In this document: positions 36,794 to 40,594 of the stretch, piece after piece
Layout: each line of letters opens with the position of its first letter
Position numbering within the stretch: position 1 is the first letter of the stretch
Sequence record: NC_054903.1
DNA length: 64,000 bases
Origin: Enterobacteria phage GiZh
Direction: 5' to 3' (one strand)
The notes under the pieces: model-generated
Database searches by the model: none
What the model saw: only the letters and a program-made list of their open reading frames with translations
Told to the model about the DNA's origin: nothing
Made by a program: the position numbers and the translations under genes

Positions 36794-39700
36794 ATGGCTA
36801 CTTTAAAACAAATACAATTTAAAAGAAGCAAAACCGCAGGTGCACGTCCTGCTGCTTCAGTATTAGCCGAAGGTGAATTGGCTATAAACTTAAAAGATAG
36901 AACAATTTTTACTAAAGATGATTCAGGAAATATCATCGATTTAAGCATTTCTGCTGGTGGTAATATCAGTGGTAATATTACTCAAACTGGTGATTATACA
37001 CAGACTGGAAAATTTAATTTAATTGGTCCGCAAATTGTAGAAAGCGGTGGATATATTGAGTTTAATTATCGTACTACTGGAAGTGGGGCTTGGTCCGGTC
37101 AACATACTGCGAAAGCTCCAATTTTTGTAGATTTAAGCTCAGCTACTTCCACATCTGAATATAATCCTATAATTAAACAGCGCTTTAAAGATGGAACTTT
37201 TTCATTAGGTACTTTAGTTTCTGAAGGTTCGTTGAAGATTCATTATATCAATGAATCTGGCGATTCGAAATATTGGACGTTTCGACGTGACGGCGGATTT
37301 ACTGTTGACGGTGGAGGTTTAGGAGTATCAGGAGGTAGTATAACTACATCTGGAAATATTGCAGCTCTCGGAAATATTACTTCGCCTCAGATTAATACTA
37401 AAAATATTATTTTAGATACAAAAGCATTTGGACAATACGATTCGCAGTCATTAGTTCAATATGTTTATCCTGGAACCGGTGAAGAAAACGGTATAAACTA
37501 TCTTCGTAAAGTTCGAGCTAAATCAGGCGGAACTATTTACCATGAAATCGCTTCAGCTCAAACCGGTAAAAATGATGAAATTTCTTGGTGGACCGGAAAT
37601 ACACTTACTACTAAATTAATGGGTCTTCGTAATGATGGCGCAATGGTATTACGTCGTTCACTTGCTATTGGCACAATTACCACTGACGAAAATACTAACA
37701 ACTATGGTTCTCCTACTCCAATGGGAGAAAGATATATTGCTTTGGGCGATGCTGCCACTGGTTTAAAATACATTAAGCAGGGCGTTTATGATTTAGTAGG
37801 TAATTGGAATTCTGTTGCGTCTATTACTCCTGATAGTTTCCGTAGTACTCGTAAAGCGATATTTGGACGTTCAGAAGACCAAGGCGGAACCTGGACAATG
37901 CCTGGAACGAACGCTGCCTTTTTATCAGTTCAAACACAGGCTGATGAAAACACTGCTGGAGACGGCCAGACGCATATTGGCTATAACTCAGGCGGAAAAA
38001 TGAACCACTATTTCCGTGGTAAAGGCAAAACTAATATTAATACTCAGGAAGGTATGGAAGTTAATCCGGGTATTTTGAAATTGGTAACTGGCTCTAATAA
38101 TGTAATGTTTTATGCTGATGGCGGTATTACATCTGTTAAGCAGCTTTCAATATATAATGGCATATATTTAGCAGCTAATAATTCTACTGCTGGGCTAACA
38201 TTCGCTCCAACTACTACAATTGATGGCACTAAGCAAATTTTGTGGGAAGGCGGTACTCGTGCTGGTCAGAATAAAAGCTATGTAACTGTTAAAGCATGGG
38301 GTAATTCATTTAACGCATCTGGCGATCGTAATCGTGAAACGGTTTTTGAAGTAGCTGATGGACAAGGATATTATTTTTATTCACAGCGTGTGGCTCCAAG
38401 TGGCTCTGAAACTACTGGGCCTGTTGTAACCCAGTTCAATGGACAAGTTAATGCTAGAGGAAGTATTATTACTGACGGAAGTTTTAAAGTTAATGGATTA
38501 AGCACTTTAGTCGGTAATGTTACCATGTCTAATGGTTTGTTTGTCCAAGGTGGTTCTTCTATTACTGGACAAGTAAAAATTGGTGGAACTGCTGATGCAT
38601 TAAGAATTTGGAATGCCGAATACGGTGCTATTTTCCGTCGCTCAGAAACAGCATTACATATTATCCCGACTCCTAAAGATGCCGGTGAAAGTGGTGGAAT
38701 AAGTAATCTCCGCCCACTTAGTATTAGTCTTAATAATGGTATGGTACAAATGCGCCATTCTGTTACGTTAGGCGATGATGGCGCTGGCGGTAATATGATT
38801 ACTGTGGACAACGATACCAAACTTGTTGTTGTTACTAGTCATAGTCGTATTTCTCCTAATTACCGTATGCAGGTAGGACAAGCAGCTTATATTGATGCTG
38901 AATGTACTGACACCGTTCGCCCGGCTGGCGCAGGGTCTTTTGCTTCACAAAATAATGAAAACGTTCGTGCTCCGTTCTATATGAATATTAATCGCACAGA
39001 TACAAGTACTTACGTTCCTATTTTAAAACAACGTTATGTTCAAGGAAATAGCTGTTATTCTTTAGGTACTTTAATAAATGGCGGTAACTTCAGAGTTCAT
39101 TATCATGAAGGTGGAGACGGAAGTTCAACAGGCGCAATTATAAAAGATTTAGGCTGGGAATTTACACGTTCTGGTGATTTTATATCTCCTAAGCGCATTT
39201 CTGCTGGGGGTTCAGTTTATTTAGGTACAGACGGTAACATTACTGGTGGTTCTGGTAATTTTGCCAACTTAAATAGTACAATTGAATCACTTAAAACTGA
39301 TATTGTTTCAAGTTATCCTATTGGAGCTCCGATTCCTTGGCCTACTGATACACCTCCTGAAGGTTATGCCATAATGGAAGGTCAAACATTTGATGTTGGC
39401 TTGTATCCTAAGTTAGCTGCGGTGTATCCTTCCGGCTCTCTGCCTGATATGCGCGGGCAAACTATCAAGGGTAAACCATCTGGGCGTGCTGTATTAAGTA
39501 CAGAAGCAGACGGTGTTAAGTCACATAGTCATAGTGCAAGTGCATCAAGCACGGATTTGGGTACTAAGACCACATCAAGCTTTGACTATGGTACTAAGAC
39601 GACAAGTAGTTTCGACTATGGTACTAAGACCAGTAATAATACTGGTGCTCATACGCATAGTTTGAGCGGTTCCACAAACACCGCCGGTGCGCACAGCCAC

Positions 39701-40015
39701 ACAAGCGCTCTTTATGCGGGAAGTAACAACTCTCCTGGTACTGGTTCTATAAGAGGATCCGCCGGTGGTGGTAATACGCTTGGAACTTCTTCTTCTGGGG
39801 CACATTCGCACTCTATATCTGGTACTGCTGCAAGCGCAGGCGCTCACGCGCATACTGTTGGTATTGGTGCTCATACCCATACTGTAGGTATCGGTGCTCA
39901 TACCCACACGGTAGCAATTGGCTCGCATGGTCATACTATCACTGTAAATAGTACAGGTAATACAGAAAACACGGTTAAAAACATTGCTTTTAACTATATT
40001 GTTCGTTTAGCATAA
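36794..40015 (+). CDS. 37: Long tail fibre distal subunit / receptor-binding protein gp37
   Basis: 1073 aa; C-terminal Gly/His-rich HxH boxes ([16 protein letters not shown]...) and C-terminus ...[11 protein letters not shown] typical of T4-type gp37. Confidence 0.9.
39853..39940 (+). repeat. In-frame tandem His-box repeats within gene 37
   Basis: About three copies of a 27-nt unit ggtgctcatacccatactgtaggtatc encoding GAHTHTVGI; a second repeat ([10 protein letters not shown] x2-3) lies at 39560..39640. Confidence 0.8.
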
Positions 40016-40020
40016 GGAGA

Positions 40021-40034
40021 GGGGCTTCGGCCCC
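40021..40034 (+). terminator. Hairpin ggggc-ttcg-gcccc after gene 37
   Basis: Perfect 5-bp GC stem with UUCG loop then TTCT; gene 38 starts 9 nt later so it may act as attenuator or stability element. Confidence 0.45.
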
Positions 40035-40042
40035 TTCTAAAT

Positions 40043-40594
40043 ATGAAAATCTATCATTATTATTTTGACACTAAAGAATTTTACAAAGAAGAAAATTACA
40101 AACCTGTTAAAGGTCTCGGTCTTCCTGCTCATTCAACAATTAAAAAACCTTTAGAACCTAAAGAAGGATACGCAGTTGTATTTGATGAACGTATTCAGGA
40201 TTGGATTTATGAAGAAGACCATCGCGGTAAACGGGCTTGGACTTTTAATAAAGAAGAAATCTTAATAACTGACATAGGAAGCCCGGTTGGTATAACTTTT
40301 GATGAACCCGGCGAATTTGATATATGGACTGATGATGGTTGGAAAGAAGACGAAACATATAAACGCGTTTTAATTCGCAATAGAAAAATTGAAGAATTAT
40401 ACAAAGAATTCCAAGTTTTAAATAATATGATTGAAGCTTCTGTCGCGAATAAAAAGGAAAAATTCTATTATAAAAACCTTAAGCGGTTCTTTGCTCTTTT
40501 AGAAAAGCATGAGCATTTAGGTGGTGAATTTCCTAAATGGCCTGAAAAAGAACAGAAGCCTTGGTATAAGCGTTTATTCAAGCATTACGTATAA
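40043..40594 (+). CDS. 38: Tail fibre assembly chaperone gp38 (T4 type)
   Basis: 183 aa as in T4 gp38 (not the longer T2-type adhesin); follows gp37. Confidence 0.85.
   Translation: MKIYHYYFDTKEFYKEENYKPVKGLGLPAHSTIKKPLEPKEGYAVVFDERIQDWIYEEDHRGKRAWTFNKEEILITDIGSPVGITFDEPGEFDIWTDDGWKEDETYKRVLIRNRKIEELYKEFQVLNNMIEASVANKKEKFYYKNLKRFFALLEKHEHLGGEFPKWPEKEQKPWYKRLFKHYV

Follow-up and report, generated by a model that had tools for sequence, protein, structure and literature searches.

The closest described relative of the structure considered here is the tip of the long tail fibre of phage T4, formed by the C-terminal part of gp37 (PDB ID: 2XGF, residues 785-1026). In the passages devoted to it in PMC6957217, PMC12609058 and PMC9603124, the T4 needle is six-stranded and its chain doubles back, and seven iron ions are assigned to seven HxH motifs in the corresponding passages of PMC6957217, PMC11705849 and PMC12609058, all of them citing Bartual 2010. 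The section of PMC6957217 on this domain places the two arms of the stem at residues 882-931 and 960-1009, 50 amino acids each, and names contacts between G921 and F970 and between G964 and H929. It also assigns receptor contact to a tip of 28 amino acids, residues 932-959, the residues of the stem being described there and in part of PMC9603124 as important for folding. The C-terminus of T4 gene 37 together with gene 38 is held to derive from a phage resembling lambda (PMC3157838). For such tips, the needle of His boxes, the iron sites, the lambda ancestry and the mosaic evolution are already established.

Outside the T4 type, the same stem as in the protein described below is found in Stf of phage lambda (orf-314, NC_001416), with successive HxH motifs spaced 42, 14, 48, 14, 9, 9 and 9 amino acids apart, two repeats of 10 amino acids (FDY units) and four His units of 9 amino acids. 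Lambda Stf differs in its longer, unrelated tip (spacing of 48 versus 37 amino acids), in its N-terminal shaft, in its siphovirus context and in the presence of Tfa instead of gp38. An eight-site stem is therefore no novelty, as lambda Stf and the records of many T4-like phages already contain one. More distant in sequence are the long and short tail fibre tips of Bas63 (Felixounavirus), which also consist of collar, six-stranded HxH needle and head, with 6 and 7 motifs; in the sections of the Bas63 source that deal with these tips, the rule of paired repeats reported below is not stated.

The window, i.e. the whole stretch of DNA that was analysed, comprises 64,000 nucleotides of Enterobacteria phage GiZh (NC_054903.1). 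Gene 37 (36794..40015, plus strand) codes for the distal subunit of the long tail fibre, a T4-type protein with C-terminal adhesin domain, and its open reading frame agrees with the length of 1073 amino acids given in an earlier, sequence-only reading of the same DNA. That reading had taken the gene for gp37 of a T4-like phage, which is borne out by the 96-97% identity of Tequatrovirus genomes to the window and by the end-to-end match of the C-terminal 260 amino acids to 2XGF, the T4 gp37 tip (phmmer, E 8.9e-99, query residues 12-271 against chain residues 2-242). Identity to T4 gp37 is 63% over the full length; the gp37 gene of Escherichia phage vB_EcoM-S1P5QW (OL956808) is 94% identical in DNA, and its product differs from that of the window by one residue in the C-terminal domain. 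Gene 38 (40043..40594, plus strand) lies directly downstream, as in tip systems of the gp38/Tfa type, and codes for a T4-type tail-fibre assembly chaperone, 98% identical to T4 gp38 (PHROG 105 'tail fiber assembly', E 3.5e-44). A system of the T2/T6 type, with a separate gp38 adhesin of about 260 amino acids and a gp37 devoid of the HxH needle, can be ruled out, since gp38 is here a chaperone of 183 amino acids and gp37 possesses the needle.

The layout of the C-terminal domain was mapped from the T4 limits (PMC6957217) by alignment; all parts lie on the plus strand. The N-terminal part of the collar (knob, D10), amino acids 839-909 (39308..39520), corresponds to T4 residues 811-881 and contains a match to Pfam Collar, PF07484, at amino acids 844-891 (E 1.2e-10, 41.6 bits, curated cut-off 24). 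It is followed by the ascending, or outgoing, strand of the stem, amino acids 910-969 (39521..39700), 60 residues long, which carries HxH motifs 1 to 3 and equals T4 882-931 plus an insertion of 10 amino acids. The tip (head) subdomain, amino acids 970-997 (39701..39784), equals T4 932-959 and is presumed to contact the receptor. The descending, or returning, strand, amino acids 998-1056 (39785..39961), has 59 residues and HxH motifs 4 to 8 and equals T4 960-1009 plus an insertion of 9 amino acids; the C-terminal part of the collar, amino acids 1057-1073 (39962..40012), is identical to T4 1010-1026 according to BLASTP. The first histidines of the eight HxH motifs are located at amino acids 911, 953, 967, 1004, 1018, 1027, 1036 and 1045, which gives spacings of 42, 14, 37, 14, 9, 9 and 9, and the histidines are invariant in an alignment of 38 sequences. 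Sequence of the tip is unrelated to that of the T4 tip, yet its length is equal, with 37 amino acids between HxH3 and HxH4 in both proteins; the same tip recurs in Stf of the siphovirus vB_EcoM_PD328 (ON922918) and in P0001. Pfam Phage_fiber repeat, PF03335 (14 positions), reaches 24.6 bits and so exceeds its curated threshold of 20, but its best stretch covers only the 14-amino-acid-spaced unit of the GAHTHS type at amino acids 948-961, and neither the FDY units nor the array with 9-amino-acid spacing were matched.

Two arrays of tandem repeats are embedded in this stem. The first, with a period of 30 nucleotides (39560..39632, plus strand), consists of two full FDY units (39560-39589 and 39590-39619) and a partial GTKT unit, and it occupies the part of the ascending strand that is free of His. 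The second, with a period of 27 nucleotides (39839..39946, plus strand), consists of four His-box units: GAHAHTVGI (39839-39865), GAHTHTVGI (39866-39892), GAHTHTVAI (39893-39919) and the degenerate GSHGHTITV (39920-39946). Tandem Repeats Finder reported 2.4 copies at 39560-39632 (83% matches, score 104) and 2.7 copies at 39842-39914 (84% matches, score 90), and the units were delimited with a repeat-family search, codon comparison for the FDY array and unit comparison across 17 phages for the His array. Chance or low complexity as a source of the repeats was ruled out by codon shuffling: the best window of 45 nucleotides has 38 matches for the period of 27 and 36 for that of 30, while in 500 codon shuffles of gene 37 the highest value at any period had a mean of 26.2 (sd 1.2) and was at most 31. 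The tandem coding repeats that the sequence-only reading had noticed at the gp37 C-terminus are therefore real. So is the synonymous variation it had seen between units, for the two full FDY units differ in 6 of 30 nucleotides and all four changed codons are synonymous, including a serine switch from TCA to AGT. The equivalent of the 27-nucleotide array in phage teqhad (MN895434) is already annotated as a repeat_region.

Alignment with T4 gp37 revealed the same motif order, tip length and gp38 chaperone and an identical stretch of 30 C-terminal amino acids. Against 2XGF, the only insertions or deletions in the stem are 10 additional amino acids in the outgoing strand, corresponding to the second FDY unit, and 9 in the returning strand, corresponding to one extra GAHxHTVGI unit, so that GiZh has eight HxH motifs versus seven in T4. 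The unit missing from T4, and from PhiZZ23 as well, is the second His unit (39866-39892), as seen in the unit-by-unit comparison across 17 phages; the single FDY unit of T4 equals unit 1 of the window in DNA. Repeat numbers of the two phages are thus unequal. The sequence-only reading had found the gap of 47 amino acids between the two proteins to fit a difference in repeat copy number, which holds for only 19 of the 47 residues. The other 28 lie elsewhere: 16 within amino acids 1-230, 11 as an insertion at amino acids 652-662 and one at amino acid 805; besides this insertion, further differences from T4 are found in amino acids 61-200. The placement of the repeats in the receptor-binding part has to be corrected, as they belong to the stem, a structural part of the needle, and lie outside the tip of 28 amino acids.

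To follow copy number beyond T4, homologues were assembled from 226 database proteins, 80 IMG/VR loci and 17 phage records, which provided 319 usable sequences, 93 of them unique. The protein search yielded no full-length gp37 of about 1000 amino acids; its matches, at most 808 amino acids long, consisted largely of prophage Stf or P2-like fibres, and the IMG/VR loci were likewise prophage-like. The T4-like set was taken from GenBank and consisted of 14 phage records, to which teqhad, T4 and lambda were added. In all 319 homologues the numbers of FDY and His units are matched, at 1/3, 2/4 or 3/5: a spacing of 32, 42 or 52 amino acids between HxH1 and HxH2 is always paired with three, four or five terminal HxH units, respectively, placed 9 amino acids apart, and no mismatched stem was found among the 319 sequences (93 unique). 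The units with 14-amino-acid spacing that flank the tip are matched too (1/1, 2/2 or 3/3), and the total number of HxH levels varies from 6 to 10. Five tip families each occur on two stem lengths, and the changes are always matched; PhiZZ23 and P0006, for example, are 98.3% identical over 181 amino acids and differ by exactly the FDY and His unit indels. The copy number 2/4 is present in 13 of the 15 T4-like gp37 proteins sampled (GiZh and T4 being counted among the 15) as well as in lambda Stf. It is thus the common state, and T4 is a short exception, which is better not used as the reference for length.

These comparisons indicate that the two arrays are coupled and make up a single structural feature, and that they are not loci varying independently of each other. 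We consider it very probable that they represent two halves of a single modular "rung" in the needle stem of the T4-gp37/lambda-Stf tip. Each chain of the trimer would leave the collar, run to the tip along the stem and return, resulting in a six-stranded antiparallel needle stapled by metal ions, and, by analogy with T4, each of the three chains would contribute one HxH motif to the octahedral coordination of every ion. The 10-amino-acid FDY unit of the outgoing strand would directly face the 9-amino-acid GAHTHTV(A/G)I unit of the returning strand, and one added pair of units would lengthen both strands and provide one more HxH site. The facing register proposed for GiZh is transferred from T4, where i+j of about 1891 follows from the limits of the domain and the two contacts in the literature rather than from measurement of coordinates; with this register, T4 FDY unit G895-Y904 faces G987-G996. 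The numbering used here reproduces T4 H929/H931, G921, F970 and G964. The stem of GiZh is then predicted to be of the eight-site and that of T4 of the seven-site type, one rung shorter, the eighth metal site being putative, and the extra rung would add an estimated 2.5-3 nm. Arms of 60 and 59 amino acids here, versus 50 and 50 in T4, and the co-variation of arm lengths in all 319 homologues are indirect evidence, from sequence, for an out-and-back topology; one residue must be absorbed somewhere in the stem. An AlphaFold2 monomer of amino acids 803-1073, based on the alignment of 38 sequences, was of low confidence (mean pLDDT 56.9, pTM 0.30), contained strands only at the hairpin adjacent to the tip and is uninformative as to the register of the stem.

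In-frame tandem duplication is the presumed source of the extra units. Of these, the His unit is chimeric, its 5' half matching the following unit and its 3' half the preceding one, and this fits a register-shifted tandem duplication of 27 nucleotides. Selection at the protein level would then keep the units while their synonymous sites drift, and the conserved units would double as patches of homology for exchange of tips between phages. In agreement with the recombination that the sequence-only reading had supposed at HxH boxes, the junctions of mosaic segments shared with other phages coincide with His boxes and FDY units. Nucleotides 39650-39849, which span His boxes 2 to 5, form a tip cassette near-identical to that of PD328 Stf, a protein from another phage family whose flanks are diverged, nucleotides 39860-39999 are identical to Ozark, and nucleotides 39617-40015 are identical to S1P5QW. 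Together with the presence of the same stem in lambda Stf and the lambda-like origin held for the gene 37 C-terminus and gene 38 of T4, this mosaic structure raises the alternative that there was no local duplication in this lineage and that recombination brought in stem and tip from a gene already endowed with eight sites, either a different gp37 or the Stf of a lambdoid phage or siphovirus. We give import about even odds. It does not really compete with the paired-rung model, however, as it accounts for the acquisition of the stem here and not for the first origin of the rung, and the chimeric His unit still points to an ancestral tandem duplication. The perfect coupling itself could partly reflect shared ancestry and the exchange of cassettes between stems that were already matched.

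Two further readings would give the repeats a more dynamic role. Should the arrays be slippage-prone contingency loci, copy number would change frequently within a population and alter host range; both stem lengths do occur on one type of tip, the two DNA-identical 30-nucleotide units of phage VR7 point to recent duplication or conversion, and T4 host-range mutants with duplications in the C-terminal region of gp37 were reportedly described by Tetart et al. in 1996. In the window, however, the units are only about 78-83% identical in DNA, with longest exact repeats of 17 and 14 nucleotides. The His units are base-for-base identical in S1P5QW, the closest relative, whose FDY units differ from those of the window at synonymous sites, and the last three His units are identical in Ozark, KAW1E185, ESh18 and teqhad. 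Neither near-perfect DNA repeats nor polymorphism among near-identical genomes, by which contingency repeats are recognized, were thus found for these arrays. The prevalence of 2/4 stems among T4-like phages speaks against such instability as well, and a single slippage event would produce a mismatched stem, of which the homologues contain none. Divergence of synonymous sites between units indicates that they are old and not prone to slippage; as the units have diverged in DNA and the His units of S1P5QW are identical, high-frequency variation of copy number within a population appears unlikely, and we consider the contingency reading highly improbable. Equally improbable is the idea that the repeats themselves are determinants of receptor binding, their copy number setting the receptor. 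They do lie within the C-terminal adhesin domain, and gp38 is here only a chaperone, but the published T4 receptor contacts cited above map to the tip, with a folding role for the stem, and high conservation of the repeats is seen even between phages with unrelated tips, which is the opposite of the pattern of a specificity determinant.

The useful point is a modest one, namely that repeats of the outgoing and returning strands change in number strictly together. This pairing can serve in annotation, in detection of assembly or frameshift errors and in design of chimeric or length-altered fibres. It is also conceivable, though rather unlikely, that needles evolve in length by discrete steps, being built of paired rungs of 10/9 and 14/14 amino acids, and that whole rungs are gained or lost to set the depth of the tip in the envelope. 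If this were true, access to a porin or to the inner LPS core under longer outer-core or O-antigen chains might, for example, be gained with a longer needle, and strict pairing would become a design rule for fibres of chosen length; any effect of stem length on host range is at this stage presumptive.

Two minor features accompany the locus. An antisense open reading frame of 119 amino acids at 39575-39934 was discarded as a mechanical by-product of the repeats, having no PHROG match. Between the stop codon of gene 37 and the start of gene 38 lies a hairpin, GGGGCUUCGGCCCC (40021..40034, plus strand); the RNA fold of the 46-nucleotide region 40005-40050 has an energy of -15.6 kcal/mol (z -3.1). 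In the terminator scan this hairpin was not called an intrinsic terminator, as it has no T-run. It is kept 3' of gene 37 in T4, Ozark and PhiZZ23.

The repeats lie within the final 500 nt of gene 37 (36794-40015, + strand), an open reading frame (ORF) of 1073 amino acids (aa). Tandem Repeats Finder places a 30-nt array of 2.4 copies at 39560-39632 and a 27-nt array of 2.7 copies at 39842-39914, and a second repeat search of the window returned the same two repeat families. At the protein level, the 30-nt array comprises two exact 10-aa units, termed FDY units, and a partial third, and the 27-nt array comprises four consecutive 9-aa His units, the last of which reads GSHGHTITV. FDY units 1 and 2 differ at 6 of their 30 nt; every change is synonymous, and among them is a change of serine codon from TCA to AGT. 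The best 45-nt windows in the gene contain 38 matches at period 27 and 36 at period 30, against a maximum averaging 26.2 (sd 1.2), with highest values of 31 or below, in 500 codon shuffles. The paired arrays are thus real and not a product of chance, and the tandem coding repeats that a sequence-only reading had noticed in the gp37 C-terminus are borne out.

Over 22 kb around gene 37, the window is 96-97% identical to Tequatrovirus genomes including S1P5QW, ESh18 and ESh33; gene 37 shares about 94% DNA identity with its S1P5QW counterpart. Downstream lie gene 38 (40043-40594, + strand, 183 aa) and then a 218-aa ORF. The gene 38 product is 98% identical to the T4 assembly chaperone gp38 and matches PHROG 105, which indicates a T4-type fibre, with the gp37 C-terminus itself as the adhesin, rather than one of T2 type, where that role falls to a separate gp38.

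Compared with T4 gp37, the protein is 63% identical over its full length, and the alignment of its last 260 aa to the solved tip structure of T4 (2XGF) has an E value of 9e-99. It contains eight HxH motifs versus seven in T4. In a global alignment, the 47-aa excess over T4 is composed of 16 aa within aa 1-230, an 11-aa insertion at aa 652-662, one residue at aa 805 and 19 aa in the needle, the last being the sum of a second FDY unit (10 aa) and an extra His unit (9 aa); differences of -3 and +3 in the tip cancel. The repeat number therefore does not equal that of T4, and the proposal that the excess reflects repeat copy number holds for these 19 aa; it fails for the remaining 60%, located outside the needle, the repeats accounting for only 40% of the difference. 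Most of the length difference resides in the 11-aa shaft insertion (38747-38779), absent from T4 gp37, and in aa 61-200 (36974-37390), an N-terminal segment strongly diverged from T4 and carrying several small insertions.

Published descriptions of T4 gp37 assign residues 811-881 and 1010-1026 to the collar, 882-931 and 960-1009 to the two stem arms and 932-959 to the tip; the chain goes out to the tip and returns, forming a six-stranded needle with seven iron ions, each held by HxH motifs from three chains (PMC6957217, PMC9603124, PMC12609058, PMC11705849). By sequence numbering, the T4 motifs are found at 883/885, 915/917, 929/931, 966/968, 980/982, 989/991 and 998/1000, in agreement with the published residues H929, H931, G921, F970 and G964. 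Because the arms are equal in length and the contacts G921-F970 and G964-H929 have been described (PMC6957217), the antiparallel register of the T4 stem would correspond to i+j of about 1891. This register sets the T4 FDY unit, G895-Y904, opposite G987-G996, so that a His-free outgoing stretch would run alongside the 9-aa His units of the returning strand. By extension from T4, an FDY unit and a 9-aa His unit are probably partners within one structural rung. An AlphaFold2 monomer model (pLDDT 57) was too poor for reading the stem.

A partnership between the units demands that their copy numbers vary together. The spacing between consecutive HxH motifs was tabulated for each sequence in 226 homologous proteins, 80 IMG/VR loci, 15 further phage records, T4 and lambda. 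HxH motifs 1 and 2 are 32, 42 or 52 aa apart, which equates to one, two or three FDY-type units, and this distance is always paired with three, four or five terminal His units at 9-aa spacing; the 14-aa-spaced units flanking the tip are likewise matched (1/1, 2/2 or 3/3). None of the 319 usable sequences, which comprise 93 unique combinations and 30 tip families, has a mismatched stem; owing to their relatedness, and to the possibility of tip swaps between already matched stems, they represent fewer independent events. Deviations are confined to histidine point substitutions and a single spacing of 41 aa. Each of five tip families is found on two stem lengths, both arms being changed in match every time; in the clearest pair, PhiZZ23 gp37 and the homologue P0006, proteins 98.3% identical over 181 aa differ by exactly a 10-aa and a 9-aa indel. 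Such a complete lack of mismatched forms is what the structural partner model would require. The large protein database search yielded no full-length gp37 (about 1000 aa): its hits were fragments and prophage fibres no longer than 808 aa, although full-length proteins do exist in GenBank phage records.

The stem with two FDY units and four terminal His units is present in 13 of 15 T4-like gp37 proteins (window and T4 counted), and the 1/3 stem only in T4 and PhiZZ23; T4 is the short variant, and the window is typical. Lambda Stf (orf-314), with HxH spacings of 42, 14, 48, 14, 9, 9 and 9, has a stem equal to that of the window. Longer prophage-fibre stems carry nine HxH motifs, that is three FDY-type and five 9-aa units (homologue P0021, locus L021), or ten, with an extra 14-aa unit pair each side of the tip (P0032, P0018 and P0066). 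Shorter stems with six motifs are found in P0090 and L039.

T4 and PhiZZ23 lack the second His unit (39866-39892). This unit matches the following one exactly in its 5' half (GGTGCTCATACCCA) and resembles the unit before in its 3' half, as would be expected of a register-shifted 27-nt tandem duplication or unequal exchange. FDY unit 1 is identical in DNA to the single T4 unit, and unit 2 differs at synonymous sites. The longest exact direct repeats measure 17 nt (39584 and 39614) and 14 nt (39866 and 39893); all His units are base-for-base identical in S1P5QW, and the last three are identical in Ozark, KAW1E185, ESh18 and teqhad. Exact repeats this short, together with His units identical in relatives, speak for a long-standing feature under selection and against a locus prone to slippage. 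Variation of copy number within phage populations is unlikely, since the units have diverged from each other at the DNA level. In VR7 (HM563683), unlike every other phage examined, both 30-nt FDY units are identical in DNA, which suggests that a duplication or gene conversion took place recently; such events therefore still happen occasionally.

Block-wise identity reveals the gp37 C-terminal region as a mosaic. The tip cassette at 39650-39849, which opens with the first base of His box 2 and closes inside His box 5 (boxes numbered by HxH motif), is almost identical to its counterpart in the side tail fibre gene carried by PD328 (ON922918), a Nonagvirus siphovirus, with stretches of 81 and 103 nt free of mismatches; the flanks fall below 75-90% identity. 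It looks as though a T4-like myovirus and a siphovirus have exchanged a receptor-binding tip. Mismatch-free matches begin just past His box 5 in Ozark (39860-39999) and where FDY unit 2 ends in S1P5QW (39617-40015), the ECO07P2 match extends from within FDY unit 1 (39569) as far as 39849 and is interrupted once (about 39721-39750), and the upstream match of ESh33 and S1P5QW ends at His box 1 (39528). These junctions fit the earlier suggestion that the motifs serve as exchange points, though in a small sample, and exchange points within conserved motifs are the hardest to place precisely.

By all sequence-level membership tests, the domain belongs to the T4 gp37/lambda Stf tip family, with trimer formation and metal binding predicted. 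The record of phage teqhad already carries an equivalent 27-nt array as an annotated repeat region, and PF03335 already models a related 14-aa repeat. The repeats, rightly recognised in outline from sequence, are therefore already known; the sole addition is an explicit pairing rule linking the repeats of the two stem strands.

A 119-aa antisense ORF (39575-39934, minus strand) spans the repeat region; it has no match among PHROG families, and the codon pattern probably generates it mechanically. The gap separating the stop codon of gene 37 from the start of gene 38 holds a GGGGCUUCGGCCCC hairpin (40021-40034) without a T-run, which is conserved in T4, Ozark and PhiZZ23; in T4, intercistronic regions are known to carry CUUCGG hairpins.
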